Positions 4,204 through 32,830 of a DNA stretch of 64,000 nucleotides are shown piece after piece (within the stretch, counting starts at the first letter, position 1; each line of letters begins with the position of its first letter). Under the pieces are notes generated by a model. That model had not been told where the DNA came from, searched no databases, and was given only the letters and a program-made list of their open reading frames with translations. Both the position numbers and the translations under genes were made by a program. This DNA is from an uncultured Actinomycetes bacterium (GTDB lineage: Bacteria; Actinomycetota; UBA4738; JACQTL01). The stretch spans positions 299,309 through 363,308 of the forward strand of contig CAVPQW010000005.1 of assembly GCA_963707645.1 (NCBI GenBank). The letters run 5' to 3'.

Positions 4204-5405
4204 ATGGACGGGTACACGCGGGAGGAGCTCGCCGAGCGGGCGGGGGTGTCGGTCGATTTCGTCGACCGCCTCGTGGATTTCCGGCTCCTCCTTCCCGCCG
4301 GCGGGCAATTCTCCGACGGAGACCTGCGCAGAACGCGCTTCGTCCGGAACCTCGAGCAGGGCGGCGTTCCGCTGGAGACGATCGGTGCAGCCGTGGAGGG
4401 CGGGGCGATCTCGTTCGGCTTCTTCGACGCCGGGTACTGGGAGCGGTTCGGCGGACTGACGGGGACGACCTACCGCCGGCTCAGCACGGAAACCGGCGTG
4501 AGCATCGAGCTCCTGACGACGCTCCGCGAGTCGATGGGGTACGCGCGTCCCGGCCCCGACGACGCGGTCCGGGAGGACGAGCTCGTCGTGGTCCGCTGCT
4601 GCGGACGCTGATCGCCATGGGCGCGAACCCCCTCGCGCTCGAGCGCCACATGCGGATCTGGGGCGACAGCATGCGCCGGGTGGCGGATGCCGACGGGAGC
4701 TTCTACCGGTCGGAGATCGAGGAGCCGCTGCTCGCCGCGGGACTCGGCTGGTCGGACATGATCCGCGCGGCGTCGGAGGCCACGGAGGCGATGGTGCCGC
4801 TCCTCGATCCCGCGCTGTTGTCCATCTACCACGCGCAATCGGAGCACACCTGGATGGGAAACATCGTGGAGGCCATAGAGTCCGCGCTCGAGGACGCCGG
4901 CCTGCACCGGTCGCCGGAGAACGTGCCGGCGATGTGCTTCCTCGACCTCAGCGGATACACGAGGCTGACCGAGGAACGAGGGGACCAGGCCGCGGCGGAG
5001 ATGGCGGCCACGCTCGCGAAGCTCGTGCAGACCGGCTCGCACGGGCGGGGCGGGCGGCCGGTGAAGTGGCTGGGCGACGGGGTGATGGTGCACTTCCGTC
5101 AACCGGGCGCCGCGGTGCTGTTCGCGCTCGAGATGCGCGAGGTCATCCCCGCGGCGGACCTCCCCCCTCCGCATGCCGGGATCGCCGCCGGGCCGATCGT
5201 GTTCCAGGACGGCGACTACTACGGGCGAACGGTCAACGTCGCCGCCCGGGTCTCGGCGCGCGCGACCGCGGGGCAGGTGCTCGCGACCGACGAGGTCGTG
5301 CGGGTCACGACGGACCCGGACGTCGAGTTCGTGGACATGGGCCCGGCCGAGTTGAAGGGCGTGTCCCGGCCGGTGCGGCTCCACGAGGCGCGGCGTCGGG
5401 ACTGA
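4204..5405 (+). CDS. MerR-like HTH / class III adenylate-guanylate cyclase fusion protein, frame disruption near 4597
   Basis: ORF 4204..4611 starts MDGYTREELAERAGVSVDFVDRLVDFRLL (HTH-like). The tail of ORF 4194..5405 carries the cyclase motifs AMCFLDLSGYTRLTEERGDQAAAEM...VKWLGDGVMVHF...IAAGPIVFQDGDYYGRTVNVAARV. Paralog of 10583..11816. Confidence 0.75.
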
Positions 5406-5945: not shown

Positions 5946-6689
5946 TCACGCTCCTTCTTCGGGCGTCGTCCCGGCGGCGATCAGACGGCGGACGACTCGG
6001 ACGTCGGGTCCGAGCCGGGTCAGGTGGGCGACCAGGTCGTCGGCGGCGGCGTGGAGTGCCTCGTCGGTCATCGGGTCGAGCGCGTCGAGGATGAACAGCG
6101 CCGCCGTGGTGTCGTCGCCGAGCTGCGTGCGGCGCGCCTGGCGCCAGTTCCAACGCCGGCAGGTCACGCCGGCGTCGTCGCACCACACCACCTCGCCGGC
6201 GTCGGGGTGCTCGATCACCGCGGCGCCGTCGGCCACGGTGTCGAAGGGCTCCTCGCCGGTGGCGCGGATCAGCCGCGGCGACCCGGCGTAGCGGGTCAGG
6301 TCCTCGCCGCCGAGCGGGACCTGGTGCAGCACCGAGACGGCGTTGTAGAGGTCGGTGAGCCGGTTCACGCGGGGCAGCCCGGACGCCGCGCGGCGCAGGA
6401 GCGCCTCCAGGCTGTTGCGGGTGCGCTGCGGCTTGGCCCCGAACGCCCGGTACGCCTCCCGCCACGCCGCCACGTGCGGGAGCTGTTCCGCCGGCCGGTC
6501 GCGGAGGGCCTCGCCGGCCGCGACCTCCGCCGCCCGGAGCAGCGCCTCGCTCGCCTGGTCGCTCGGGCCCGGGACGAGCCCGTCGACGGCCAGCAGCATG
6601 GCCCGATAGTCGGGCCGCAGCACGAACACCGCGGCGTCGACATGGCCGCCCGCGAGGAACTCCTGGAGCATGCCGAGCTCAGGCATCAC
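5946..6689 (-). CDS. B3/B4 tRNA-binding-domain protein
   Basis: ORF 5946..6689: WREAYRAFGAKPQRTRNSLEALLRR...LPRVNRLTDLYNAVSVLHQVPLGGEDL...VWCDDAGVTCRRWNWRQ, typical of the PheT B3/B4-like family. Confidence 0.65.
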   Translation of the reverse strand: MMPELGMLQEFLAGGHVDAAVFVLRPDYRAMLLAVDGLVPGPSDQASEALLRAAEVAAGEALRDRPAEQLPHVAAWREAYRAFGAKPQRTRNSLEALLRRAASGLPRVNRLTDLYNAVSVLHQVPLGGEDLTRYAGSPRLIRATGEEPFDTVADGAAVIEHPDAGEVVWCDDAGVTCRRWNWRQARRTQLGDDTTAALFILDALDPMTDEALHAAADDLVAHLTRLGPDVRVVRRLIAAGTTPEEGA

Positions 6690-6750
6690 ATCCTCCGACG
6701 GGGATCCCGAACACGTGGCCCCATGATCGGACCTTACGCAAAGCCCGCAG

Positions 6751-7677
6751 TCACGCTGACCGAACCGGCGGCCCCGCCGTGTTGGGGCCCGGCTCGACGT
6801 TCAGCAGGTCGCGCAGCCGTTCGTCGGAGATGGCCGCCGGCTCGCTCTCGTGGAGGAACCCCGTGACCGCCCGAACGAACCGCTCCGGATGCTCCGCCTG
6901 CGGGAAGTGGCCGGTGTCGCGCATGATCTCGAGTCTGCTGCCGGGCATCGCTGCGTGCGCCGCGTGCGCGTGGGCGACCGGGATGATCGCGTCCCGCTCG
7001 CCCCACACGATGAGCGTGGGGATGTCGGCCGCGAGCGACAACCGCTCCGTGGCGCTCACGCGCTGCCCGCCGGCGTCGACAACCGATCGAAGCGTGTGGA
7101 TGAGCGCGGCCCGAGCGTCGGGGCTCGCGAGTGACGCGTAGCATCGCCCGATCTCGGCGAACGACGCGGTGGGACGAAGGCCGATCCGGGCCAGCCATCC
7201 CGCAACCGTCCGTCCGGCGTCGAGCACGCGCGGGGAGCATCCCACCGACAACACGAGCTCGGCGCCCGGGAGCGTCAGCGCCCGGAGGTGGAGGGCGACC
7301 TCTCTCCCGAGCCCGCCGGAATCGACGAGCACGAGCCGCTCACACCGCTCGGGGAACTGGTACGCCGTTTGCATGGCGATACCGCCACCGAGCGAGTGTC
7401 CGATGAACGTTGCCCGGGGCATGTCGAGCGCCGCCATCAGATCCCGGAGGCAGGACGCGTGGGCGCCGAGCGAGTAGTCGCCGCCCGGGTTCGTCGAGCC
7501 GCCGTGGCCCGGGAGATCCGGCGCGATGACCGTTCCGTGCTCCGCCAGGAGCGGGATCACCGGCTCCCACGTCACCGACGAGCTCGCCATGCCATGGATC
7601 AGGACGATGCCCGGACCCGAGCCGGCTTTCCGGTACGCGACCTCATGACCACGAAGGCGCAGCCGGCGCAGCCTCAT
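6751..7677 (-). CDS. alpha/beta hydrolase
   Basis: Tail of ORF 6751..8493 from ATG 7677: MRLRRLRLRGHEVAYRKAGSGPGIVLIHGMASSS...FIGHSLGGGIAMQ...DTGHFPQAEHPERF. ATGA overlap with the stop of the upstream desaturase gene. Confidence 0.8.
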   Translation of the reverse strand: MRLRRLRLRGHEVAYRKAGSGPGIVLIHGMASSSVTWEPVIPLLAEHGTVIAPDLPGHGGSTNPGGDYSLGAHASCLRDLMAALDMPRATFIGHSLGGGIAMQTAYQFPERCERLVLVDSGGLGREVALHLRALTLPGAELVLSVGCSPRVLDAGRTVAGWLARIGLRPTASFAEIGRCYASLASPDARAALIHTLRSVVDAGGQRVSATERLSLAADIPTLIVWGERDAIIPVAHAHAAHAAMPGSRLEIMRDTGHFPQAEHPERFVRAVTGFLHESEPAAISDERLRDLLNVEPGPNTAGPPVRSA

Positions 7678-8588
7678 GTCGATGAGCCCGCCCGCCGTGC
7701 TTCGTACCGTGCCGCGGCGGCATCGAGGTGCGGCAGGAACTCCATGATCGCGTCGCGGGCGAGCTCGGCCTCGTCGGACAGCCCATCGAGGTGCTCGAGG
7801 CGCCACTGCTTCAGCAGTACGGGCACCAGCACCTGGTCGTGGTGGATGCGGAGGTCGTAGATGCCGGCCTTCGCGATGCGGATCGCCTTCTCGCGGAACG
7901 CCGGAAGCTCGAGCCCCGGCATCGAGAACCCCAGGACCTGCCGGGCCATCGCCACCACCGTGGCCGAGGGATCCACCTCCAGCGCGCCGGCCGTGACGTC
8001 GCGGTAGAAAACGTAGTGGAGGTTCTCGTCCACCGCGATGCGGGACATCAGCTTCTCCGCGACCGGGTCCTCGGTGATCGCGCCGGTGTTCCGGTGCGAG
8101 ATGCGCGTGGCCAGCTCCTGCAGCGTCACGTACACGAGCCCGTCGAGCGGCGTGAAGTCCCCGGCCGGGTAGTAGCCGCGTGAGACGTGCTCCATGCGCG
8201 CGCGTTCCAGGGCGACGGGGTCGACGCCGCGGGTCACGGTCAGGAAATCGCGCATCGCGATCGCGTGGCGGCCCTCCTCGGCCGTCCACCGCCGGGTCCA
8301 CTCCCCCCACGGCCCGTTTCCGCCGAACGTCTCCCAGATCGCCAGGTGGTAGTAGGGCAGGTTGTCCTCGGTCAGGAGGTTGACCTCGAGCGCCGTCTGG
8401 GCGATGTCGGACAACCGGCTGTCTCCGGCGTCCCAGGGTTCGTCCGTGAAGTTTCGGCCTTCCTCCCACGGCACGTACTCGTGGGGGAACCACTCCTGGG
8501 CGGCGGACAGGTGCCGGTCGAGGACGGACCCGACCAGCGATTCGAGCTCGAGCAGGACATCGGTGGGCGTGACGGTCGACGTCGGCAT
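7674..8588 (-). CDS. acyl-ACP desaturase (DesA-like di-iron desaturase)
   Basis: ORF 7674..8588: LTEDNLPYYH...WTAEEGRHAIAMRDFL...QELATRISHRNTG...VDENLHYVFYRD, the di-iron EXXH motifs of the soluble desaturase family. Confidence 0.8.
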   Translation of the reverse strand: MPTSTVTPTDVLLELESLVGSVLDRHLSAAQEWFPHEYVPWEEGRNFTDEPWDAGDSRLSDIAQTALEVNLLTEDNLPYYHLAIWETFGGNGPWGEWTRRWTAEEGRHAIAMRDFLTVTRGVDPVALERARMEHVSRGYYPAGDFTPLDGLVYVTLQELATRISHRNTGAITEDPVAEKLMSRIAVDENLHYVFYRDVTAGALEVDPSATVVAMARQVLGFSMPGLELPAFREKAIRIAKAGIYDLRIHHDQVLVPVLLKQWRLEHLDGLSDEAELARDAIMEFLPHLDAAAARYEARRAGSST

Positions 8589-10336: not shown

Positions 10337-10404
10337 AGGATCACGACCGCGGGGGATGAAGTAATCACCCCCATCCGTGGCCTTGGGAAGCCACAAGCAA
10401 TACG

Positions 10405-10488
10405 TGCCCGGGGTGGGACTCGAACCCACATGGCCCAAGGGCCCGCGCTTTTTAAGAGCGCTTCGTCTACCGATTTCGACACCCGGGC
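10405..10488 (-). tRNA. tRNA-Leu (anticodon UAA)
   Basis: The reverse complement folds as a class II tRNA: acceptor GCCCGGG/CCCGGGC; anticodon stem GCGCT/AGCGC with loop CTTAAAA; long variable arm GGGCCCTTGGGCC; T arm GTGGGTTCGAGTCCCAC. No CCA is encoded. Confidence 0.9.
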
Positions 10489-10582
10489 TCGCAGCCAGGA
10501 TATGTCAACGGGAATTCCCGTCCCGTTGGCCGCCGCTCCTCGGCGCCAATGGCAGCGCCTGCAGGCGACTACCATCGCGCCG

Positions 10583-11816
10583 ATGCAGCCCTCCCAATCC
10601 CTGTCCGAGGACGAGCTTGCGCGGGGCAGCGGGGCCCCGCCCGAGCAGATCCGGCGCCTGGTCGACTTGGGGATCGTTCCGCGTCGCGACGGGGAGCGCC
10701 CGTTCGAAGCCGCGGACGTCCACCGGATCCGGCTCGCGCAGGCGTTTGAACGTTCCGGCATCGCGTTGGAGGCGATCGGGGACGCGATCGGCGCGGGCTG
10801 GCTCTCGCTGGACTTCGTGGACCGGATGTTCCCGACTCGCGGCGCCGCTGTCCGGGCGGACCTTCGCGGAGGTCGCCGACGACATCGGGGTCCCGCTCGA
10901 GACGCTCACCCGCCTGTACGCGATGTGGGGACTTCCCCGCCCCGCGCCCGAAGACGCGATCCGCGAGGACGACGAACCGACCTTCCGCGAGTGGAAGGCG
11001 TTCTTCCCGCCGGAGGCCCTCAACGACGAGCTGCTGACCCAGGGCGCGCGGCTGTTCGGCGAGGCGACGAGCCGGGTGGCCGACTGGGGAATGTCCATGT
11101 ACCGGACCTACATGGAGGCCCCGATGCGGGCGGCCGGCATGACGTCACAGGAGATGCTGGACGCTGCGACCGCGTTCGCCTCTGTCGGAACGCCCATCAT
11201 GGAACGCCAGCTCAGCTGGCTGCTGCGACGGAAGCTCGAGCACAACGCGTTCCAACTGATCGTCGAGCACATCGAAGGCGCGATCGAGGCCGCGGGCACA
11301 CCCGTGCCCGGGACGGCGCGCCCGTCGGCGATCGCGTTCGTCGACCTTTCGGGCTACACGGCGCTGACGGAGGAGATCGGGGACCAGGCCGCCGCCGACC
11401 GCGCGGCGACGATGGGGACGATGCTGCAGGAGCTTGCGCACGCTCGGGGCGGGCGGGTCGTGAAGCTCCTGGGGGACGGGGCGATGCTCCACTTCCCGGA
11501 TCCGGCCGAGGCGGTCCGCACCGGACTCGAGGTCGTGCGGCACCTGCATGACGCGGGGATGCCGCCGGCCCACGTGGGCGTGGCGGCGGGCCCGGTGGTA
11601 TTCCGGGAGGGCGACTACTACGGCCGCGTCGTCAACCTCGCCGCCCGGATCATGGGCCGGGCCGGGGCGAACGAGGTCCTGGCGACGGCAGGGGTCGCCT
11701 CGGCGCTCGAGGACCTCGCATTCGAGTCGCTGGGCATGGTTGAGTTGAAGGGAATCGCCGAACCGGTCGAGCTGTTCCGCGCTACCGCCGCCGGAGACGC
11801 GCCGGCGTCCCGCTGA
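10583..11816 (+). CDS. MerR-like HTH / class III adenylate-guanylate cyclase fusion protein (paralog of 4204..5405), frame disruption near 10840
   Basis: From internal ATG 10583, ORF 10430..11551 reads MQPSQSLSEDELARGSGAPPEQIRRLVDLGIV. The tail of ORF 10377..11816 carries AIAFVDLSGYTALTEEIGDQAAAD...VKLLGDGAMLHF...VAAGPVVFREGDYYGRVVNLAARI. The earlier part of ORF 10430 overlaps the tRNA. Confidence 0.75.
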
Positions 11817-13199: not shown

Positions 13200-13317
13200 G
13201 GCGGAACCTCCGGATTCAGGGCTGGCGGAGGCATCCTACGCACCCGTCGCCGCAGGCCTCCGGTCGGCACCGTCACTTCGGCAGAGGCCGAAGCGTTGCG
13301 GTGCTAGCGTCGAGTCC

Positions 13318-14079
13318 ATGGACGGCGACGCCGACATCGCGGCCATCGGAGCGCTCCTCGCGGACCGCAGCCGGTGCCGGGTCCTCGCAGCGCTCGGCGA
13401 CGGCCGCGCGCTCCCGGCGACCGTCCTGGCCTCGGAGGCCGGCATCGCTCCGTCCACCGCCAGCGGGCACCTCGCCCGCCTCGTGAACGCCGGCCTGCTG
13501 ACCGTCGAACGCCATGGCCGGAACCGGTACTTCCGCATCAGCGGCCCGGACGTTGCCGATCTGCTGGAGGCGATGGCCAGGCTGGCGCCGCCGCTCCCCG
13601 TCCGGTCACTCCGCGAGGGCACGAGGGCCGAAGCGCTGCGGTTCGCCCGGACCTGTTACGACCACCTCGCCGGCCGGGTTGGCGTCGAGGTCATGGACAC
13701 GCTGCTCTCGGGCGGCCACCTCGAGTCCGGCCCCGACAGCGGGAGCGCCGCGGCGAACCGGCTCTCGGCTCCGGGCCGAGCCCTGAGGTTCGGCCTCACC
13801 GACCAGGGCGCGGCGTTCCTCAACGACCTCGGGGTTGACCTCGAGCACCTGCCGCCGCGGCGCGAACCGGTCCGCTACTGCATGGACTGGAGTGAGCAGC
13901 GCCCACACCTCGCCGGCGCCGTCGGCGCGGCGCTGACCTCGTGGTTCCTCGACCGGGGATGGATCGAGCGAACGGCGACCCGTGCGGTTCGCGTGACCGA
14001 TGCCGGCCGGCGGGGGTTCGAAGGGGCCTTTGCTGTCGACGCCGTCAGGAGCCGGACGGGGGCGGCGACTGCTTCGTGA
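13318..14079 (+). CDS. ArsR-family winged-helix transcriptional regulator
   Basis: Tail of ORF 13198..14079 from ATG 13318: LADRSRCRVLAALGDGRALPATVLASEAGIAPSTASGHLARLVNAGLLTVERHGRNRYFRI. Confidence 0.7.
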   Translation: MDGDADIAAIGALLADRSRCRVLAALGDGRALPATVLASEAGIAPSTASGHLARLVNAGLLTVERHGRNRYFRISGPDVADLLEAMARLAPPLPVRSLREGTRAEALRFARTCYDHLAGRVGVEVMDTLLSGGHLESGPDSGSAAANRLSAPGRALRFGLTDQGAAFLNDLGVDLEHLPPRREPVRYCMDWSEQRPHLAGAVGAALTSWFLDRGWIERTATRAVRVTDAGRRGFEGAFAVDAVRSRTGAATAS

Positions 14080-14356
14080 GCCAGTCCCCCCAAACATCAT
14101 GTCGCCGATCGGTGGCATTCGCCATCTGTCGACGATCGGCGAAAACCTTCGCGGGGAGGAGCGCTGCCCGTGCCGCTGAGCAGCGATTCTGGATCCAACC
14201 GCCACGGTCTGACACGACCGGTTGTCGACGAACGCTGACATTGCCCGACGGTCACCGATCATCGACATGGGCCTGGGAGGAGGACGCCCGTGTCGGAGCC
14301 GGCCCGGGAACGCAAGGCGACGCTGCACGCTTCGTGGACGCCAACACGCTCGCGAA
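14058..14356 (+). repeat. copy A of three-copy conserved intergenic element (core 14086-14288; four palindromic boxes)
   Basis: Aligns by hand with the reverse complement of 25278-25480 (about 80% over about 205 columns) and with 32536-32736. Boxes lie at 14101-14116, 14128-14143, 14224-14239 and 14251-14266. The strand given is only the relative orientation. Confidence 0.8.
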
Positions 14357-14388
14357 TTCCCTCCGGCAAGGCCTGCGCGGCGTGCGAG

Positions 14389-15339: not shown

Positions 15340-17345
15340 TGAGCGGCGGTCCCGAACGGCGGGCCGCCCGGCCCTTCCAGCAGCTCGGCGAGCGTCTCGT
15401 CGCTCTCGCCGCCCGGCACGGGATGGTAGGTCGCCACGACGTCCTGGAGCAGCGCCCGGATGCGACCGGGATCGCCGTCGGCGGCGGCGTCGGCGAGCAG
15501 CCCCACCGCGCGCTCGAGCGAGGCCGGGTCGGGCTCGCGGCCGAGGTTCGCCACGAAGATCTTCTCGACGTTCGTGGTCTCGGTGCCCTCCTCGGCGAGG
15601 AGGATCTCCTCCTTCAGCTTCTCCCCCGGCCGGATGCCCGTGAACTGGATCGGCACGTCGACGTCGGGCTCCAGGCCGGACAGGCGGATGAGCGCCTCGA
15701 CGAGGTCCATGACCAGGACCGGTTCGCCCATGTCGAGGACGAACACCTCCCCGCCGGCGCCGAGCGTCGACGCCTTGAGGATGAGACGCACGGCCTCCGG
15801 GATCGTCATGAAGTACCGCTCCATCTGCGGGTGGGTCACCGTGATCGGCCCGCCCCGGCGGATCTGTTCCTCGAGCAGCGGGATGAGCGACCCGCGCGAG
15901 CCCAGCACGTTGCCGAACCGCACCGCGACGAAGCGGGTTCCGCTCGCCTCGTTCAGCCGGCGGACGATCATCTCGGCCACGCGCTTGGTCGCGCCCATCA
16001 CCGAGGTCGGGTTCACGGCCTTGTCCGTCGAGATCTGGACGAACATCTCCGCGCCGGCCGCCGCGGCGACCTCGGCCAGCACCTTGGTCCCGAGGACGTT
16101 GACCGTGACGGCCTCCTGCGGGTGCGCCTCCATCATCGGCACGTGCTTGTACGCGGCAGCGTGGAAGACGACCTGCGGCTGATACGTGCGGAACACCTGC
16201 CCCATCCGCGCCCGATCACGGACGTCGCCGACCACCGGGAACACCGGCACCCGCGGCGCGCTCCGACGCAGGTCGACCTCCAGGCCGAACAGCCGCGACT
16301 CGTCCTTCTCCAGCAGCACCAGCCGGCCCGGTTCCACCAGCGCGATCTGCCGCGCCAGCTCCGCCCCGATCGAGCCGGCCGCGCCGGTGATCAGCACGGT
16401 GCGCCCGTACAGGTACTCGCCGACGCTCGTCATGTCGAGCTCGGTGACCGGACGCTTCAGCAGGTCCTCGACCTTCACATCCCGGACGCTGGCGAGCGTG
16501 ACCCGGCCCTCGAGCATGGCTGCGACGCCCGGCAGGATCTTCACCGAGGGAACGCCTGCCTGGCGGGCCAGTACGACCACCTCGCGGATGACCGGGCCGG
16601 GCGCGCTCGGCATGGCCACGATGACCTCGTCGACGCGCTCGTCCTTGACCACGCGGGGGATCAGGCTGCGGCCGCCGAGCACCCGCACTCCGTGGAGGTA
16701 GGTGCCGTGCTTGAACGGTGAGTCGTCGATCACGCCGACCGGCCGGAACCCGCTCACCCGGTCGTGTCGGATCTCGCGGAGCAGCTTCTCGCCGGCGCGC
16801 CCGCCGCCGACCACGAGCAGCCGCCGGCCCTCCTCGCGGCCCCCGAGCGTGACCACCTGGTAGATGCGCTTGGCCATCCGGATGCCGGCCACGCCGACGA
16901 ACGACAGGACGAAGTCGAGCACCAGGATCGACCGGGGCAGCGTCGGGATGTGGAGCGGCTCGTGCAGGAAGAACACCGCCGTCCCGAATGCGGTCGTCCC
17001 CACGAGCGTCGCCAGGAACGCCGAGATGACGTCCCGCGTGCTCACGAACCGCCAGGTCAGGTGGTACAGCCGGAACGCGGCGTTCGCCACGACCTTCGGC
17101 CCGATGGCGATGAGGAAGTACACCGGGATGTACTTGCGGTAGTCGTGCGGGATGGCCGCGTCGAACCGGATCAGGAACGACAGGTACAGCGACCCGGCGA
17201 AGATCACGAGATCGCAGGCCAGGAAGAACAGCGTCCGCTTGGACGCGGTGGGGTGCAGGATGCCGTGCAGGCTGAACCGGCGGTGGTGCTGCACCGCTCC
17301 GGACGGCGCCGCCGCGTCCTCGTGGCGCTCCCGGCCGAGCCTCAC
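15336..17345 (-). CDS. membrane-bound polysaccharide biosynthesis protein, CapD/PglF/WbpM-type UDP-sugar 4,6-dehydratase
   Basis: C-terminal 669 aa of ORF 15336..18170 from GTG 17345 (GTGA overlap with the DegT stop). N-terminal TM helices, then ITGAAGSIGAEL...FHAAAYKHVPMME...STDKAVNPTSVMGATKRVAE. Confidence 0.85.
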   Translation of the reverse strand: MRLGRERHEDAAAPSGAVQHHRRFSLHGILHPTASKRTLFFLACDLVIFAGSLYLSFLIRFDAAIPHDYRKYIPVYFLIAIGPKVVANAAFRLYHLTWRFVSTRDVISAFLATLVGTTAFGTAVFFLHEPLHIPTLPRSILVLDFVLSFVGVAGIRMAKRIYQVVTLGGREEGRRLLVVGGGRAGEKLLREIRHDRVSGFRPVGVIDDSPFKHGTYLHGVRVLGGRSLIPRVVKDERVDEVIVAMPSAPGPVIREVVVLARQAGVPSVKILPGVAAMLEGRVTLASVRDVKVEDLLKRPVTELDMTSVGEYLYGRTVLITGAAGSIGAELARQIALVEPGRLVLLEKDESRLFGLEVDLRRSAPRVPVFPVVGDVRDRARMGQVFRTYQPQVVFHAAAYKHVPMMEAHPQEAVTVNVLGTKVLAEVAAAAGAEMFVQISTDKAVNPTSVMGATKRVAEMIVRRLNEASGTRFVAVRFGNVLGSRGSLIPLLEEQIRRGGPITVTHPQMERYFMTIPEAVRLILKASTLGAGGEVFVLDMGEPVLVMDLVEALIRLSGLEPDVDVPIQFTGIRPGEKLKEEILLAEEGTETTNVEKIFVANLGREPDPASLERAVGLLADAAADGDPGRIRALLQDVVATYHPVPGGESDETLAELLEGPGGPPFGTAAQ

Positions 17346-18583
17346 CGACGGCCCACCTCGTCGAGGGCGGCCGTCAGGGCCCCGGCGACCCGAGCGACGT
17401 GGTCCTCCGTCATCGCCGCCCAGAACGGAACGATGAGCGTCCTGGCCGAGGCCGCCTCGGTCTCCGGCAGCGGCGTCGCGAGGAGCGAGTCGTCGCCCGC
17501 GTACGGGGGCTGGCGGTGGATGGCGGGCTCGAAGTACGCCTTGGCCTCGACCCCCATCCGGCCGAGCACCTCGACGAGCCGGTCGCGGTCGATCCCCTCC
17601 GCCACGCGGACCGCCTGAACGAACCACGCCGGCCGGGCCCAGTCGGCGACCCGCGGCAGCTCGACGCGGTCGATCCCCCGCAGCGCCCCCGCGTACCAGC
17701 CCGCCACGCGGGCCCGCTTGTCGAGGATCTCGTCCACGCGGCGCATCTGGGCCACGCCGAGCGCCGCCGACAGCTCGTCGAGCCGGTAGTTGAACCCGAT
17801 CCGCGAGTGGTGGAGCCAGGAGTCGCCGAGCCGGCGGCCCTGGTTCCGGAGGCTGCGGATGCGCTCTTCGAGGTCGGGGTCGGCAACGACGACCATCCCC
17901 CCCTCGGCGGTCGTGATCTGCTTGTTCGGGTAGAACGCAAACGTGGCCGCCGCCGCGCCGGTCCCCGCGTGGACCCACGCTCCGTCGCCCTTTCGATAGG
18001 AGCTCCCCATCGCCTCGCAGGAGTCCGAGATCACCGGCAGGTCCCACGCCTTCGCGATGTCGAGGATGGCGGGCATGTCGGCGGGGTGGCCGAACACGTC
18101 CACCGTCAGGATGCCCGCGACGCGCCGCCCGGTCCGGGGGTCGCGGAGGTCGTCGCCGTCGTCCTTGCACGAGTCGAGGTAGGCGCGGACCAGGTCGGGC
18201 GAGATGCAGAGCGTGGCCGGATCGATATCGACGAACACGGGCTCGGCGCCCTCGTAGCGCAGGCAGTTCGACGAGGCGATGAACGAGAACGACGTCGTGA
18301 CGACGCAGTCGTCGGGCCCGATCCCGAGGGCGCGAACCGCCAGGTGGAGCCCGGAGGTGCCGCTCGACACCGAGATCCCGAACGGGAACCCGGAGAACGC
18401 CGCGACCTGGCGTTCGAACTCGGTGGCCTTGGGGCCGAGGGCCAGCCGGCCGCTCCGGAGGACCGCGAGCACCTCCGCCTCCTCGGCGGGGCCGATGTCG
18501 GGCAGGGCGAGCGGGATGTTCGATTGATCCGAGTTCGTCACCAGCCCCCCGGCTGTCGGCGGCGCCTCATGATAGCCCCGCAT
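17342..18583 (-). CDS. DegT/DnrJ/EryC1/StrS family sugar aminotransferase
   Basis: ORF 17342..18583: IPLALPDIGPAEEAEV...SSGTSGLHLA...FAFYPNKQITTAEGGMVV...GFNYRLDELSAALG. Alternative start GTG 18541. Confidence 0.85.
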   Translation of the reverse strand: MRGYHEAPPTAGGLVTNSDQSNIPLALPDIGPAEEAEVLAVLRSGRLALGPKATEFERQVAAFSGFPFGISVSSGTSGLHLAVRALGIGPDDCVVTTSFSFIASSNCLRYEGAEPVFVDIDPATLCISPDLVRAYLDSCKDDGDDLRDPRTGRRVAGILTVDVFGHPADMPAILDIAKAWDLPVISDSCEAMGSSYRKGDGAWVHAGTGAAAATFAFYPNKQITTAEGGMVVVADPDLEERIRSLRNQGRRLGDSWLHHSRIGFNYRLDELSAALGVAQMRRVDEILDKRARVAGWYAGALRGIDRVELPRVADWARPAWFVQAVRVAEGIDRDRLVEVLGRMGVEAKAYFEPAIHRQPPYAGDDSLLATPLPETEAASARTLIVPFWAAMTEDHVARVAGALTAALDEVGRR

Positions 18584-21121: not shown

Positions 21122-21171
21122 GCGCGCCCCGGTCCGTCGCCCGAACTGCCCATGTCCGGTACGTTCCGCCC

Positions 21172-23534
21172 GTGGCGCGCCGGAAGCTGGCCCTGGTGTT
21201 CGTGGTGGTGGCGGCCGCGTGCACCTCGACCACACCGCCGCACCCGCAGCCGTCGGATCGCCCTCCGGGCGGCACCCTCAGGGTCGGTCTCATGTCCTCC
21301 GACGACGAGATCGGCGGATGGTGTCCGCTGCTGCTATGCGGGCACACGTTCGATCCCCAATCAACGTCGTTCGTCTCGAACTTCGAGATGGACCGATGCT
21401 GCTTCATGCGAACGCTCATGTCCTACTCGGGAGGCTCGGCGGCCGACGGCGGAACGGTCCCCCAACCCGATGTCGCAACGGCGGCGCCAGCGATCTCGAC
21501 CGACGGGCTGACGTGGACCTTCCATCTGCGGTCGGGCCTGCGGTACGCGCCGCCGTTCGAGGACACCGAGATCGTCGCGGCGGACTTCATCCGTTCGTTG
21601 GAACGGGCGTTCACCCCCGCGAGCAACGACATCCCGTGGGCGGCGGGTGGCGGGACGATCGGCTTCTACTGGACCGACACGTACCTGGCGACCGTCATCG
21701 CCGGCGTCGCCGACTTCACGGCCGGCAAGGCCGACCACGTCTCCGGCCTCGAGGCGCCCGACCCGCACACGCTGGTCGTGCACCTGCTGCAACCGACCGG
21801 CGATCTCGGCTCCCGGCTCGCGCTCCCGCAGCTCGGCCCGATCCCGGCCAACCCCGCCCACCCGGACGATCCCCTCGGCGTCGCTCAGGGCCACGACATC
21901 GACTACGGGGACGTGATGGTGTCGAGCGGTCCGTACATGTTCGAGGGGAGCGAACATCTGACGTACCGGGCGCGGCCGGAGGACCAGCTGCCGCCCGAGG
22001 GCGACGGGCCCGACATGGCGACGCTCGTTCGGAACCCCAGATGGTCGCCGCAGGACGATCCCATCCGGCGCGCGTGGGCCGACCGGATCGAGCTCTTCCC
22101 GATCTCGTCCCCGCGCGAGGGCGAGACGAAGCTCCGCACCGGCGCGCTCGACGTCGTCCTCGATTGGGGCGCGGAGGCTGGGACCGTCACCCGGTGGCTG
22201 GACGACCCGGCGCTCCGGCACCGGATCGAGGTCTCCCCTGCGGACGGCGAGGACTTCCTGGTTCTCAACGTGGCGATTCCGCCCCTCGATGACCTCCACG
22301 TTCGCCGGGCCATGGCGCTTTCCGTGAACCGCCTGGCGGCCGCGAGCGCGTTGGAGGGCGACGGGAGGGAGCTGGGCCGCCGGGTGCTGACCCACCTGGC
22401 CCTCGACTCCTACGAGGGCAACCTCCTGACTCTCGCTACGAACCACCCGGGTTCGCACCCGAGGGGAACCCGGACGCCGCGGCCCGGGAGATGGCGCTGT
22501 CCGGCTACGACACGGACCACGACGGACGGTGCGACGCCGACCCTTGCTCCGGGGTCGAGCTGCTCGTCGACCGGGCGGATGCCCCGGGCGTCGCTGCGGC
22601 GCGGCAGCTCGCCGGCGACTTCGGTTCGATCGGCCTTGGCGTCGACGTCACGCCGCTCCCGAGCCAGCGGATGCGCAACACCTTCGGACATCCCGAGCTG
22701 CACCAGGCGCTCCGGCTCAGCGGCTGGACCAAGGACTACCCCAACGCCAGCACCTTCTTCCCGGCCCTGCTCGGGAGCGACGCGATCCGCGGGGCGAACC
22801 TGAGCCTCGTGGGCGCGTCGCCGGAGCAGCTGCGCCGCTACGGCTACACGGTCGAGTCCGTCCCCTCGGTCGACGACCGCATCGCGGCGTGCTCGGGCTC
22901 GTTCTCGGCGCCCAGACCCGTTGCTGGGCTGCGCTCGACCAGTTCCTGACCGAGCAGCTCGTACCCTGGATCTCCCTGGCGCAGGCGGAAGCGGGCTGGC
23001 CGTCCTCTCGACGGGTGCAGACGGTTAACGTCGACGCGTCCATCGCCATCCCCCTCCCTGCGCTCGACAACATCCAAGTCCGGGGCGAACCGGGCGCGCT
23101 GTCGCCCGTCCCGCCGGCCCCGGCCGAGGTGCCCACGATCCCCGAAGGCGTCTACCGCGTCACGGTCTCGATCGACGACATCGTGGCGGCCGGCGGCGCC
23201 ACGGACGCCGACCAGGACGTCGGTACGTTCACCGGTGGAGCTCGGCGGGGGGTGGTTCCGGTGGCGCCAGCGGTCGGCCGACCCGCTCTTCGATCCCGTC
23301 GGCGTCGGGACCTATGAGGGGTCCGGGGACCGGGTCACGTTCCACCAGTCACAGCCGTACTTCAACGCCCTCGGCTTTTCCCCCCTCACCTGGCAGCTCC
23401 GGGGGACTTCGGTCGTGTTCGACATGGAGCGATGCACGGGCCCGGCGGCAGATGACCCCGACCTCTGCGCGTTCGAACGAGCCCTGTTCACCGCCCACCC
23501 ATGGGAACTGGTCGACCTCGACACTGCAGGCTGA
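21172..23534 (+). CDS. ABC transporter substrate-binding lipoprotein (family 5, peptide/nickel type), three frame disruptions (about 22455, 22895, 23230)
   Basis: From GTG 21172 the sequence reads VARRKLALVFVVVAAACTS (lipobox). It continues through ORFs 20137..22803, 22491..22949, 22529..23317 and 23235..23534 with coherent sequence (ISTDGLTWTFHLRSGLRYAPPFED...SSGPYMFEG...DFLVLNV...GWTKDYPNASTFF). Confidence 0.6.
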
Positions 23535-23572
23535 TCCGACCTCGCCCCCGGATCGCCCGGCGGAACGTCGGC

Positions 23573-25094
23573 CTACGGCTCGTGCAGCGTGACCCAGATC
23601 CCCCCGGAGGCCTCGGCGACGGCGTCGGGGCTGAAGCCCAGGCGGCGCCGGCCGACGACCGCGGCCGTCGAGGGATCGACGTGGGCGACGGTGCCGTCCA
23701 GGCTGTTGGCGACCCACACGCCGTCCGGTCCGGCGGCGACCCCGAGCGGACCGTTGCCCACGTCCGCGACCTCGGTGGTGCGACCGGTCGCGGCTTCGAT
23801 CCTGGTCATCGAATCGGCATCGCGGCTGGTGACCCAGACGTACCCATCCCCGAACGCCAGCCGGCTCGGCTGCCCGTGCAGCAGCGGAATCGGTCGCACG
23901 ACCTCGAGCGTCCCGGGATCCACCTGGAGGACGCGCCCCCCAGCGCGTCGGTCACCCACACGGACCCGCCGCCGACGACGACGTCGACGGGTTGCGTCCC
24001 CGCGGGCAGCGGGATGCGCCGGATGTCGTCCGTGATGGGATCGAGCCGGAGCAACACGCCTTCGTTCGACTGCGCGACCCACACGTGGTCGGCTCCGTAG
24101 GCAACCCCCTGGACGCCGGACCCGACATCGGTCGCCACCACGTCGTTCGCCTGGTCCGGGTCGATCCGCACCAGCTGTCCCGAGATCGCCGTGGTCACCC
24201 AGACGAAGCCGCCGCCGACGGCGATCCCGGTCGGATTCGACGAGACGCCGCCCTGCGCTGGTGACGCGACACCCGTCTCGGCATCGATGCTCTGCACGGT
24301 CTTGTCGTCGAAGTTCGCGACCCAGAGGAGGCCGTCCCCGTAGTCGACATCGGTCGGCGTCCGGCCCACGGGGGCGCCTCCGGCGACCTCTCCGGTCCCC
24401 GGATCGAGCCGCACGATCGTGTTCGCCGCGGGAACGAACGCGTCCTCCGACGCTCCCCCTCCCGAGACCAGGAGCGCCACCGTGACGCCCACGGCGGCCG
24501 CCACCACGAGGGCCGCCGCCACCAGGAGACGCCGCCGGGGCCGTTGCGCCTCGAGGGCGGGCTCCGGGGACTCCGGTTCGCCGGGCGTGTGGCGCACCTC
24601 GGACAGGATGCATCTGGCTGCTCACGCCCTTCAGCTCGTGGAACCCCTTGTCCTCGAACACGAGGTCGGAGCCGGGCATCAGCCTCCCGGACCACGCTCG
24701 AGACGAGGAGCTGCCCGGGCCCGGCCTTGGACATGACCCGGGCGCCGATGTGCACGGCGACGCCGCCGACCTTGTCCCCCATCACCTCGACCTCGCCCAT
24801 GTGGATCCCGGCGCGGATGTCGATCCCGACGGCGTGGAGGCGGTCGATCATGTCGGTCGCGCACGCGATGGCGTCGGTCGGCTGGTCGAACGTCGCGAGG
24901 AACCCGTCCCCGGCCGTGTCGATCTCGCGGCCTCGATGCTGCTTCAGGGACCGCCGGACGATGGCGTGATGCTTCGTGAGGAGGTTCCGCCAACGCGAAT
25001 CGCCGAGCTCCTGGGCGAGCTGGGTCGAGCCGACGATGTCCGTGAACAGGACGGTGGTGAGGATCCGGCGCTTGTCCGAGCCTCCGCGCGGCAT
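23573..25094 (-). CDS. class III adenylate/guanylate cyclase - TM - beta-propeller repeat protein, three frame disruptions (about 24690, 24610, 23935)
   Basis: From ATG 25094: MPRGGSDKRRILTTVLFTDIVGSTQLAQE...DTAGDGFLATF...IHMGEVEV..GGVAVHIGARV. Then a TM segment (RRRLLVAAALVVAAAVGVTVALLV). Then repeats of the type GxxPxGIAVGGGFVWVT / VWVANSLDGTV, spread over ORFs 24195..25184, 23573..24679 and 23806..24597. Confidence 0.7.
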
Positions 25095-25187
25095 CCGCGT
25101 AGTCTCCGCGACGCGCTCCGGGGGCACAAGGCGCACCGAGTCTCCGTGTCCATGAGCGGGGAGATCGGCGACGCGGGTCAGCACGAA

Positions 25188-25520
25188 CCTGAGCGGCGTT
25201 CCGCTCGTTGACGTCCTCGAGGTACAGGTCGAGGACGTCGCCGGGAACCGGGTCTCGAGGGCGGGTTCCGGACAGGAGGCGTCTTCCTCCCAGGCCCATG
25301 TCGACGATCGACGACCGTGTGGGAATGACCACCGCTCGTCGACATCCTTCGTGTCAGACCCGTTGTGTTGGATACGGAACTGCTGCTCAGCGGCACGGGC
25401 AGCGTTCCTCCCCCCGCGATGTTGTCGTCGATCGTCAACGGGTCGCGACTGTCACCGAACGGCGACGTGACGTTGGGGGGAGGAGAGCATGAACCTTCGA
25501 TCCCCGAGGGACGTGGCGAT
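25188..25520 (-). repeat. copy B (inverted, most complete) of the three-copy element: wzt-3'-like relic 25188-25245, core 25278-25480, junction with XRE gene start
   Basis: The reverse complement aligns with copy A over the full 203-nt core. The minus strand of 25188-25245 encodes PGDVLDLYLEDVNERNAAQ, against the true Wzt C-terminus ADEVLNLYLQDVDERNAVAQ. The G-run end of the core runs into GGAGGAGAGC-ATG of the HTH gene. Confidence 0.8.
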
Positions 25521-25751
25521 CGTCGTTCGCGAAGCCCGGCTGACCCACCTGAGCAGGCGGATCTCGCCGAGCGGCTTCACGTGAGCCGCGCTTGGATCGT
25601 CAAGCTGGAGCAGGGACGGGCGCGATTGCAGCTCGGACTCGTTCTCAAGGCACTTGATGCCGTCGGTTTCGTGATGAGCGTGTCCTTCGAGCGGTTGACG
25701 AGGCGGGATACCTCTGGACGCGTCGACATCGAAAACCCCTTGGACTTGTGA
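25489..25751 (+). CDS. XRE-family HTH regulator (HipB/y4mF antitoxin-like, orphan), one frame disruption near 25553
   Basis: ATG 25489 follows GGAGGAGAGC: MNLRSPRDVAIVVREARLTHLS. After a shift, ORF 25365..25751 continues with ADLAERLHVSRAWIVKLEQGRARLQLGLVLKALDAVGFVMSVSF. No hipA-like partner lies downstream. Confidence 0.7.
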
Positions 25752-25800
25752 CGCACCTCGGCGGAGGGTCCGGCCTCGGTCTCTGGCGCGGACTCGGCGC

Positions 25801-26637
25801 CTAACCGGCCGACTCGGCGGGCGCCGGCTCCGCCGGCGCCTGAGCGACCGCGTTGCGCTCGTCGACGTCCTGCAGGTACAGGTTAAGCACCTCGTCGGCC
25901 GGCCCGTCGGCCCGGACCATGGCCCGGTCGAGGTAGATCACCCGGGGGCACAACCGCCGGACGTCGGCGAGGATGTGCGAGACGAACAGCAGCGTCTGGC
26001 CGTTCGCCCGGAGCTCGTCCATCCGCGTGAGGCACCGCCGCTGGAACGACTCGTCGCCGACCGCCAGCACCTCGTCGACGAGCAGCACGTCGGGCTCGAG
26101 GTGGACCGCCACGCTGAACCCGAGCCGCACCTCCATGCCGCTCGAGTACCGCTTGGTCGGCGTGTCGATGAACCGCCCGAGCTCCGCGAACTCGACGATG
26201 TCGTCGAACCGCGCGCGGATGTCCTTCCGCGTCAACCCCAGGATCGAGCCGTACAGGAAGATGTTCTCCCTGCCGGTCAGCTCGGGGTGGATGCCCGACT
26301 TGATCTCGATGAGCGACCCGACCCGGCCGCGCGTCTGCACGTTCCCGGCCCACGGCAGCGTGATCTTCGAGATGAGCTTCAGCGCGGTCGACTTGCCCGA
26401 GCCGTTCGGCCCGATGATGCCGACCGACTCGCCCTCGTTGATGTCGAACGTCGCGTCGGCGAGCGCCCACAGGTGCTTGATGGGCTCGGCCTTCTTGCGC
26501 AGCCCGGCGCGCTCGAGCGACAGCGTGATCTCCCCGGCCAGGGTGCGGCGCTTCACGTGGCCCTTGCGGCGCGCGCCGAGCCGGTACCGCTTCCACACGT
26601 GGTCCATCGAGACGACCGGGGTTCCGTTCGCCGCCAT
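25801..26637 (-). CDS. wzt: polysaccharide ABC transporter ATP-binding protein (Wzt/TagH type)
   Basis: C-terminal 278 aa of ORF 25801..27798 from ATG 26637: GIIGPNGSGKST (Walker A), YSSGMEVRLGFSVA (signature), LLVDEVLAVGD (Walker B), LFVSH. Confidence 0.85.
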   Translation of the reverse strand: MAANGTPVVSMDHVWKRYRLGARRKGHVKRRTLAGEITLSLERAGLRKKAEPIKHLWALADATFDINEGESVGIIGPNGSGKSTALKLISKITLPWAGNVQTRGRVGSLIEIKSGIHPELTGRENIFLYGSILGLTRKDIRARFDDIVEFAELGRFIDTPTKRYSSGMEVRLGFSVAVHLEPDVLLVDEVLAVGDESFQRRCLTRMDELRANGQTLLFVSHILADVRRLCPRVIYLDRAMVRADGPADEVLNLYLQDVDERNAVAQAPAEPAPAESAG

Positions 26638-31131: not shown

Positions 31132-32454
31132 ATGACGCTGGAACTGGGCATCGATCCACTCAACGAGCTGGCCGAACGGATCCGCACGAAGCAGGCGCGG
31201 ATCGCGGTCGTCGGGCTCGGCTACGTCGGGCTGCCCCTCCTCGTCTCGGTGGCGAACGCCGGCTTCCGGACGATCGGGCTCGACGCGGACCCCGAGAAGG
31301 TCGGGCTCCTCGCGGAGGGGCGTTCCTACATCGTCGACGTCACCGACTACGACGTCGCCAGCGTCGAGCGGGGGCGCTTCTCGACCGATCCCGCGCTCCT
31401 CGACGATGCCGACGTCGTCATCATCTGCGTCCCGACGCCGCTCACCGACCACGCGCCGGACCTGTCGCTCGTCCGCCGAGCCGCCGAGGACGTCGGCAAG
31501 CACCTGGCGAGCCGGGGCGGCTGGTCGTCCTCGAGTCGACGACCTACCCCGGCACCACCGAGGAGATCCTCCGCCCCTCGCTCGAGGCGCACTCGGGACT
31601 CGAGGCCGGGCGCGACTTCGCCCTCGGCTACTCGCCGGAGCGCATCGACCCGGGGCAGCGCTCGCACCGCCTCGAGAACACGCCGAAGATCGTCGCCGGC
31701 CTCACCGACCGGTGCCGGGATCTCACGGCGTCGTTCTACGCGCACTTCGTCCGGGACGTCGTGACCACGGCGTCGCCCCGCGAGGCCGAGATGGCCAAGC
31801 TCGTGGAGAACACGTTCCGCCAGGTGAACATCGCCCTCGTGAACGAGCTCGCGATCATGGCCCGCGAGATGGGCGTCGACATCTGGGAGGCGCTCCAGGC
31901 CGCGTCGACGAAGCCGTTCGGCTACATGCCGTTCTGGCCGGGGCCGGGCGTCGGCGGCCACTGCATCTCGATCGACCCGTCCTACCTGTCGTGGCGCGCC
32001 GGCCAGCAGCTCGGCTACCGGATCGGGTTCATCGAGCACGCGAACGAGGTGAACAACCGGATGCCCGAGTACGTGGTCTCGCGGATCGGCGAGGCGCTCA
32101 ACGAGGCCGGCAAGCCGCTCAAGGGGTCACGGGTCTTCTGCATCGGCGTCGCGTACAAGCCCGGGGTCGACGACCTCCGGGAGTCGCCGGCGCTCGAGGT
32201 GCTCGACCGGCTGGCCCGGCGCGGCGCCACGGTGAGCTACCACGACCCCCTCGTGGCGCACGTGGAGCTTCGGGAATTACAGCTCGACTCACGGCGCGCT
32301 CACGGAGGAGGTCCTGGAGGACCAGGACTGCGTGGTCGTCCTCACCGCCCACCCGGGGCTCGACGTCCGCATGGTCGTCAGGTGCGCGGCGCTCGTGTTC
32401 GACGCCCGGGGGGTCACCGCCGGCATGGACGCGCCGAACGTCGTCCGCCTGTAG
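31132..32454 (+). CDS. nucleotide-sugar (UDP-glucose/GDP-mannose family) dehydrogenase, two frame disruptions (about 31510, 32280)
   Basis: ORF 31132..31764 starts ...RIAVVGLGYVGLPLLV (Rossmann fold). It continues in the frame of ORF 31761..32564 (LESTTYPGTT...EMAKLVENTFRQVNIALVNE...GPGVGGHCISIDP...GVAYKPGVDDLRESPA). The last 55 aa (...VVLTAHPGLD...APNVVRL) lie in a third frame ending at 32454. Confidence 0.8.
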
Positions 32455-32487
32455 CCGCGGAACCCCCGCCGCAAACACCTGTTGGTC

Positions 32488-32830
32488 GGCGACGATCGCA
32501 ACGTCCCTTGGAGGAGCACGGACCTTCGTGCGCTCTCCTCCAGCGTCGTGTCGCCGATCGATGACAGGCACGAACAGTCGACGAACGACGACATCTTCGT
32601 GGGGAAGGACCGCTGCCTGGGCGGCTGAGCAGCGATTTCGTATGTACCACGACGGATCTGACAGGCTGGATGTCGAGGAGCGGTGACTTCCCCCGAAGGT
32701 CGACGATCGACGACATGGGCCTGGGAAGAGCCAGCCGTCATCACCGCCAAGGGATCCATCGCCCCCCCGGGGACATTCGAGGCAAAGAGCCCAGCCACCT
32801 GGGCGGACGTGCGAGGGGCCGAGCTTCGAA
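32488..32830 (+). repeat. copy C of the three-copy element (core 32536-32736), with truncated XRE-start relic and weak wzt-3'-like relic
   Basis: The core aligns with copies A and B, sharing GTCGCCGATCG, GCTGAGCAGCGATT, TCTGACA, ATGTCGAGGAGCGGTGAC and GACATGGGCCTGGGA. The reverse complement of 32490-32509 matches 18 of 20 nt of XRE codons 7-13. Confidence 0.75.

Follow-up and report, generated by a model that had tools for sequence, protein, structure and literature searches.

The E. coli HipB protein binds cooperatively to four operators located in its own promoter (PMC3920265). Orphan antitoxins occur frequently; those that belong to HipA toxins are among them, and abound in Klebsiella (PMC7192599). 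The locus described here lies in a 64,000-nucleotide stretch of DNA, called in the following the window, and is compared with other loci denoted by L numbers. On balance, the data moderately favour viewing the region 25188-25800 as a composite of two decaying pieces, a dead fragment of the wzt 3' end and a unit of ~540 bp; the latter would descend from a hipBA toxin-antitoxin operon which lost hipA, and would form a decaying, low-copy repeat family.

The window has a G+C content of 72% and hosts a polysaccharide gene cluster, with wzm/wzt, glycosyltransferase, epimerase, DegT, UDP-glucose dehydrogenase, sulfotransferase and sulfatase genes. The region of interest is comprised between a minus-strand cyclase gene, which starts at 25094, and the wzt stop codon (25801-25803). 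Its features are the following:

23806-25094, minus strand: class III nucleotidyl cyclase gene, with a transmembrane segment and beta-propeller repeats
25165-25257, minus strand: non-functional relic of the wzt 3' end; its homology covers the terminal ~100 nt of the gene (…PGDVLDLYLEDVNERNAAQ…)
25250-25797, plus strand: repeat unit, formed by core, XRE gene and a tail of ~46 nt, with limits set by homology to the independent copy L046
25278-25485, plus strand: core copy B, ~205 bp, with dyad symmetry (nhmmer E=1e-61)
25489-25751, plus strand: frameshifted XRE gene of the HipB/Y4mF type, 263 nt
25801-26637, minus strand: wzt, encoding the ATPase of a polysaccharide-export ABC transporter, an intact neighbour

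The order relic, core, XRE gene and wzt stop given in the earlier note is correct, and 49 nt separate the XRE stop codon (25749-25751) from that of wzt. The cyclase gene is divergent from XRE and carries, relative to L001, two uncompensated +1 indels (24608 and 24684). The UDP-glucose dehydrogenase gene (31132-32455) is similarly split over three frames. These broken conserved genes reflect either genome decay or indel errors in the assembly, and bear on the reading of the XRE frameshift discussed below. Other sequences of the window deserve mention. An ASdes sRNA (RF01781; 68.9 bits, full-length model coverage), found at 8209-8276 on the plus strand, is the sole above-threshold Rfam match in the window. 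Segments 4927-5132 and 11326-11531, 6.4 kb apart, are 70-73% identical at the nucleotide level. The second is located inside an ORF (10377-11816) with a class III cyclase domain, and the two plausibly mark paralogous cyclase genes, which would raise to three, with the cyclase flanking the relic, the cyclase-type genes of the window. The arms of a 36-nt inverted repeat, 92% complementary, are located just upstream of the epimerase gene (15457-15492) and in the beta-propeller part of the cyclase gene (24204-24239).

The XRE sequence had been regarded as an intact orphan gene. Its 263 nt do not support this, as the frame opened by the ATG ends after 30 codons. In comparison with all four orthologous contigs, 3 nt are absent at about 25550, and 1 nt at about 25555. 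An assembly error is possible, because the cyclase and UDP-glucose dehydrogenase genes are frameshifted too; real decay is favoured by changes unique to the window at otherwise conserved residues (K2N, L61F, W88L), and XRE is probably a pseudogene in this assembly. Once repaired in frame, the protein has TIGR03070 (Y4mF/HipB) as best NCBIfam match (E=1e-12), with a score of 47.6 bits that does not reach the curated cut-off of 71.65. A Cro/XRE-type HTH is recognized by both PF13560 (37.9 bits, cut-off 27) and PF01381 (25.8 bits, cut-off 23). Matches at 40-55% identity retrieved by a profile search bear the source names HipB or y4mF, and the assignment to this group made earlier thus holds, as does the notion that XRE has no toxin partner, since no hipA adjoins the window copy.

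Close homologues of XRE (70-83% identity) are intact, 87-88 aa long, and found in metagenomes only. Intact copies are under purifying selection (dN/dS 0.34-0.64). Profile searches over species-representative genomes detected only Cellulomonas persica, at 43% identity, and neither XRE nor the core had protein or DNA matches in a plasmid collection. L001 (1300-1345) and L003 (660-700) share a +1 insertion in XRE, and the frame is restored in the two by different nearby -1 deletions. The restoration suggests that selection may act to retain the C-terminal part of the protein.

The connection with hipBA operons comes from more distant homologues. Domain searches identified XRE homologues directly upstream of genes encoding Couple_hipA and HipA_C domains in L047/L048 and L012. 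The former is 49% identical to the window XRE by BLASTP, and 43% in alignment A9; the latter is 42% identical over 66 aa by BLAST, and 37% in the same alignment. The C. persica homologue (L044; 43% in the best tblastn segment) overlaps the next ORF at an ATGA, and this ORF, by inspection of its sequence, reads as HipA-like. None of the close copies of the unit is flanked by hipA. The search for full-length modules advised in the earlier note was therefore successful in part: hipA was found beside the distant homologues L012 and L047; no close copy carries it, and no integrase was found in the window ORFs scanned.

The core hosts four 16-bp palindromes fitting the consensus GTCNNCGATCGNNGAC, arranged in two pairs. 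Partners are 27 bp apart, and about 96 bp separate P2 from P4. The elements of core B are listed here:

25300-25315: palindrome P3, GTCGACGATCGACGAC
25328-25343: palindrome P4, degenerate, ACCACCGCTCGTCGAC, about 27-28 bp from P3
25382-25403: conserved central hairpin, GCTGCTCAGCGGCACGGGCAGC, mean column conservation 0.90
25424-25439: palindrome P2, GTCGTCGATCGTCAAC, putative operator, conservation 0.95, in register with the L012 hipBA promoter
25451-25466: palindrome P1, GTCACCGAACGGCGAC, putative operator, conservation 0.96, 27 bp from P2 and 22 nt upstream of the ATG
25474-25484, plus strand: Shine-Dalgarno-like run, GGGGGGAGGAG, with predicted pairing to CCUCCCCCC at 25405-25413, without covariation

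In copy A, the starts of P4 and P3 are 27 bp apart. The window contains 18 matches to the palindrome, 10 of which fall in the three cores described below; 4.85 would be expected over the entire window. Conservation within the core is highest at P1 and P2. These two palindromes bracket a -10-like hexamer, and are both positioned just upstream of the ribosome-binding site. A consensus promoter scan of the interval 25050-25850, tuned to E. coli-type promoters, detected nothing. L012, a genuine hipBA operon, was picked up by scanning for the P1-P2 pattern. Its promoter is organized as TGTCGCCGCTCGTCGACA, 11 nt containing TACAAT, TCAGCGAACGGCGACA, 23 nt and ATG, in register with the array P2, 11 nt, P1, 22 nt and ATG of every core. 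At least the core half nearest to XRE therefore corresponds to a hipB(A) promoter/operator region. The distal half is an internal repeat of the same palindrome-spacer-palindrome unit. Core and XRE most likely represent together a hipA-less hipB gene with its operator/promoter region, and the palindromes are putative binding sites of the XRE protein. The consensus GTCNNCGATCGNNGAC is accordingly an operator prediction for this HipB clade, open to testing.

The core had been viewed in the earlier note as a hairpin hiding the XRE ribosome-binding site. According to this explanation it would be a structured cis-regulatory RNA, a 5' leader controlling XRE translation. The fold predicted is stable (-102 kcal/mol, z=-2.9), and in the consensus structure predicted, CCUCCCCC is paired to the Shine-Dalgarno run. 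However, both strands fold equally well, the opposite one having z=-3.1, as palindromic DNA should. The covariation terms amount to +0.58 and -0.03, with 3 compensated pairs on either strand, figures of low power because only 7-8 similar sequences are at hand; P3 changes are not compensated in P4. Neither gathering nor permissive thresholds gave a match of the core in Rfam. Copy A is located between two gene ends, and L001/L003 lack most of the core. An RNA leader thus appears very improbable. The core was also considered as a coding sequence and discarded, because the frames of the small ORFs differ from copy to copy. In annotations the core should not be labelled as riboswitch or MITE, and the window XRE should be marked as a pseudogene.

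That the core is present in three copies of about 205 nt (A, 14085-14287; B, 25278-25485; C, 32531-32735) was confirmed. The reverse strand of each also matches the nhmmer model. Additional copies were found elsewhere, and the unit occurs in at least eight different gene contexts of one uncultured actinobacterial lineage of high GC, most often having lost sequence from the XRE side:

14085-14287, minus strand: window copy A, core lying between two gene ends, the stop codons of an HTH-regulator gene (14079) and of the epimerase gene (14389)
25250-25797, plus strand: window copy B, between wzt and cyclase, as in L001-L004
32484-32850, minus strand: window copy C, C-type subfamily, between UDP-glucose dehydrogenase and GT2 genes; XRE 5' remnant (32484-32529), core (32531-32735) and an extension of ~115 nt common to L026
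L026: C-type subfamily, between DHFR-like and aminotransferase genes
L016: C-type subfamily, at an LppX-like lipoprotein gene
L045: between wzt and sulfotransferase genes, XRE intact, relic absent
L046: between nadA and isochorismatase genes, whole unit, XRE frameshifted
L053: directly upstream of rpsO, XRE intact

The limits of the unit result from L046, in which positions 272-806 are 81% identical over 544 nt to window 25260-25797. One end falls 3 nt from the wzt stop, the other at the relic. The left motif TCGAGGGCGGGTTCCG is common to the window, L002 and L046. A left-boundary motif of ~13 nt (GGGCGGGTTCCGN) is reiterated as three tandem repeats in L046 (222-270) and L002 (1-55), and is found once in the window (25250-25266), where the left motif and the start of the relic make up a 26-nt near-palindrome (25244-25269).

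C-type copies host decayed XRE remnants of about 45-130 nt. Copy C of the window retains XRE codons (24/26 nt; score 35 vs 14.8±2.3, 0/500), as reported in the earlier note. In contrast, the XRE remnant described at copy A is not significant. The view of A and C as truncated copies of the B module is consequently valid for C, in which core and XRE extension are both significant, and for the core alone in A; the relic is missing at either. The tail following the XRE stop is common to B and L046, which indicates that the loss of hipA preceded the copying of the unit. Identity among copies is 64-85%, and the family is therefore old. Of the 39 loci of the JGI metagenomes carrying the P1-P2 pattern, L012, L016 and L026 are real and the others fortuitous; the core DNA pattern had 0 matches in species-representative genomes.

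Cores A and B mark synteny breakpoints. Relative to L049, the window has 4.7 kb of extra DNA (21123-25859), comprising a solute-binding protein gene, the cyclase, the relic, core B, XRE and the wzt tail. Relative to L051, the extra DNA (13200-14388) includes the HTH gene and core A. Copy C is found just past the end of the L049 homology, outside the comparable range. L049 features, between the GT2 and epimerase genes, which are adjacent in the window, a PIN-domain (VapC-like) gene, a small upstream ORF and a PNPOx gene (6645-7745), a further insertion of toxin-antitoxin type in the same cluster. In L049, the epimerase gene is immediately followed by a sequence that looks by eye like a tRNA (17745-17833). 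In the window, tRNA-Leu(UAA) (10404-10488, minus strand) is about 3.9 kb away from the epimerase gene, and core A, the HTH regulator gene, a beta-lactamase-family gene and the start of a cyclase ORF are located in between.

The dispersal described could indicate a small non-autonomous mobile element, similar to a MITE or a cassette, in which the core is the substrate for recombination or transposition, XRE is a passenger or an accessory DNA-binding factor, and the enzyme is supplied from elsewhere. The variety of insertion contexts, the absence of the unit from the closest Wzt relatives, and the presence of three copies within 19 kb at breakpoints of the polysaccharide cluster, as far as A and B are concerned, all fit such an element. 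So do the location of most copies between gene 3' ends and the overall inverted symmetry of the core, the ends of which pair. Sharp terminal inverted repeats are however missing, and no target-site duplication is definable at copy A by comparison with L051 and L049, because the intergenic DNA of the empty sites is too diverged. Copies vary in extent, and their divergence speaks for age and against a recent burst. MITEs are expected to be many near-identical dispersed sequences, and the copies found here are few and 64-85% identical, with three true matches in the JGI metagenomes and none in species-representative genomes or plasmids. Integrase or transposase Pfam domains were not detected in the ~20 principal ORFs scanned over part of the window (about 10.4-36.5 kb), in agreement with the earlier statement that no integrase is present. 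Last, the P2-P1 half is by homology a hipBA promoter. For all these reasons a mobile element is unlikely.

The second piece of the region is the relic. The earlier note had described it as a duplicate of the wzt 3' end, and segment 25188-25244 is indeed the best non-self match in the window for the 3'-terminal 120 nt of wzt (blastn, 80% over 60 nt, E=5e-10). By tblastn, EVLNLYLQDVDERNAVAQAPAEP aligns with DVLDLYLEDVNERNA-AQVRADP at 15/23 residues (E=7e-5). A lack of significance would have dismissed the relic; the Smith-Waterman score is 61, against 17.9±3.0 in shuffled sequences (0/500). Similarity extends to 25257 when the wzt ends of L002 and L045 are used for comparison. The relic lacks the last 13 nt and the stop codon of wzt, and is shortened by deletions in L001/L003 and L004. 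Its alignment to the wzt 3' end, proposed as a means to date the duplication, is significant and gives no date: identity to seven wzt tails is 74-84% over 39-85 nt, and does not discriminate among them. The degraded relics assigned to the other copies did not stand up. The sequence next to copy A (GDAARFVDANTLAN) is equalled by shuffles in 86/500 cases, and in 189/500 when compared with wzt itself; the flank of copy C is similarly not significant by the shuffle test.

The Wzt proteins closest to that of the window, encoded by L052 (95% aa identity), L051 and L049/L050 (92%), are found at loci lacking XRE. No core is present in 12-21 kb of L049-L051, in which wzt and a sulfotransferase gene converge, 108-148 nt apart. 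Absence of the module from these relatives implies that DNA was inserted or exchanged at the wzt 3' end, as had been surmised. Empty sites do exist in the form of wzt loci devoid of the module, and none of the relatives compared has wzt directly next to the cyclase gene. The possibility of a merely local ancient duplication, with the same arrangement in relatives and no repeats elsewhere, is half borne out: the arrangement is common to L001-L004, and repeats occur in other contexts. The arrangement is old, since it is found in L001-L004, in which deletions have shortened the relic and in some cases the core.

The wzt gene is a mosaic. L045, which carries the module, is the most distant from the window in the wzt body (85% identity), and is 83% identical in the last 105 nt. 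In contrast, the module-less L052, L049 and L051 are 89-93% identical in the body and 62-71% in the tail. In all module-bearing loci wzt ends with …AES(A/T)G*. These data hint that wzt tail and module may travel together. They could be accounted for by an integrative element that targets the wzt 3' end and brings in a replacement terminus, with the displaced original left as the relic in the place of an attR. In its favour, the module is exactly flanked by diverged direct repeats of the wzt 3' end, and is next to wzt in two otherwise different arrangements, those of the window and of L045. Against this, a wzt tail is missing in the flanks of L053 and not significant in those of L046, which lacks the relic as well, and no relic is found in L045 or at copies A and C. 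The DVNER(N/Q)A motif of the relic tail is a family consensus, not an element-specific signature. XRE identity between the window and L045 is 78%, below that of the wzt body, and gives no sign of recent co-transfer. No integrase, as said, is encoded by the about 20 ORFs scanned. The idea that the element carries a replacement wzt end is thus not supported by the independent copies, and an integrative element is improbable. The tail-versus-body mosaic keeps a weak case for it; devoid of an integrase, it is a weaker explanation than a decaying, toxin-less hipB.

The presence of the relic indicates that the DNA downstream of wzt was rebuilt. Under the hipBA-descent explanation, incoming DNA, made of wzt with its tail and the module, may have undergone homologous recombination within wzt or upstream of it. 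It would also have been joined illegitimately, about 100 nt short of the stop codon of the resident wzt, and the resident tail would thereby have been stranded as the relic. Homology-anchored recombination at one side and an illegitimate join at the other would be the simplest reading of the wzt junction. The unit would consist of an 88-codon HipB-type HTH gene and of the core as upstream promoter/operator region. By analogy with E. coli HipB, the palindromes would be occupied by dimers of the XRE protein, which would act as repressors of their own promoter. The hipA-less unit would have been copied to many loci in the actinobacterial lineage, most copies having been truncated from the XRE side, and the frameshifted window copy B would probably be non-functional.

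Some data do not fit the operator model. Copies A and C have retained the palindromes even though neither has an XRE to be regulated, a conservation which a role as operators is by itself insufficient to explain. Copy A is moreover located between two gene ends, where no promoter is needed, and in L001/L003 the XRE frame is still open in spite of the absence of about 190 nt of core. Furthermore, descent from hipBA leaves the copying of the 540-bp unit to new loci unaccounted for. The latter could in principle be explained if hipB and operators formed a self-propagating cassette, in which the HTH protein binds the four palindromes, recruits host recombination and inserts the unit beside gene ends. 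Such a cassette is highly unlikely; if real, it would seed rearrangement breakpoints in polysaccharide clusters, or be a spreading anti-addiction element.

As descendant of a hipBA operon, the unit documents the decay of a toxin-antitoxin operon to an orphan antitoxin gene which kept its operator array, and indicates that what is left can survive as a repeat family of few copies, located at the junctions where a cell-surface polysaccharide cluster was rearranged. The locus is a neat example of decay and rearrangement in a genome rather than a system of a new kind, and opens no long-standing question.

The unit resembles in part several known systems. Like MITEs and REP/BIME sequences, it is a short, palindrome-rich dispersed repeat, mostly found between gene ends, and is predicted to fold into a closed stem-loop on either strand. 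It differs from all of these because it carries, or carried, a gene, has a low copy number, and corresponds for one half to a promoter/operator region. Defined terminal inverted repeats, target-site duplication and cognate transposase are lacking as well. Genomic islands that restore the 3' end of their target gene are similarly flanked by diverged direct repeats of a gene 3' end. In contrast to these, the unit has no integrase among the ORFs scanned, the insert is only about 0.55 kb long, copies found elsewhere have no gene end, and the repeats are about 80% alike. Orphan antitoxin genes are closer, as they too are antitoxin-family genes without toxin, found in varied contexts and degraded in some copies. 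Here, however, gene and upstream region of ~205 bp behave as one repeat, with many truncated copies, three of which in one polysaccharide cluster. In comparison with E. coli hipBA, the unit lacks hipA, its palindrome is GTCNNCGATCGNNGAC and not TATCCN8GGATA, sites are arranged in two pairs about 96 bp apart to which binding is putative, and the NCBIfam score is below cut-off. The two have in common a small Cro/XRE-type HTH antitoxin gene with four palindromic sites near its start (PMC3920265), and homologues of the window XRE located in true hipBA operons share the two-palindrome layout.
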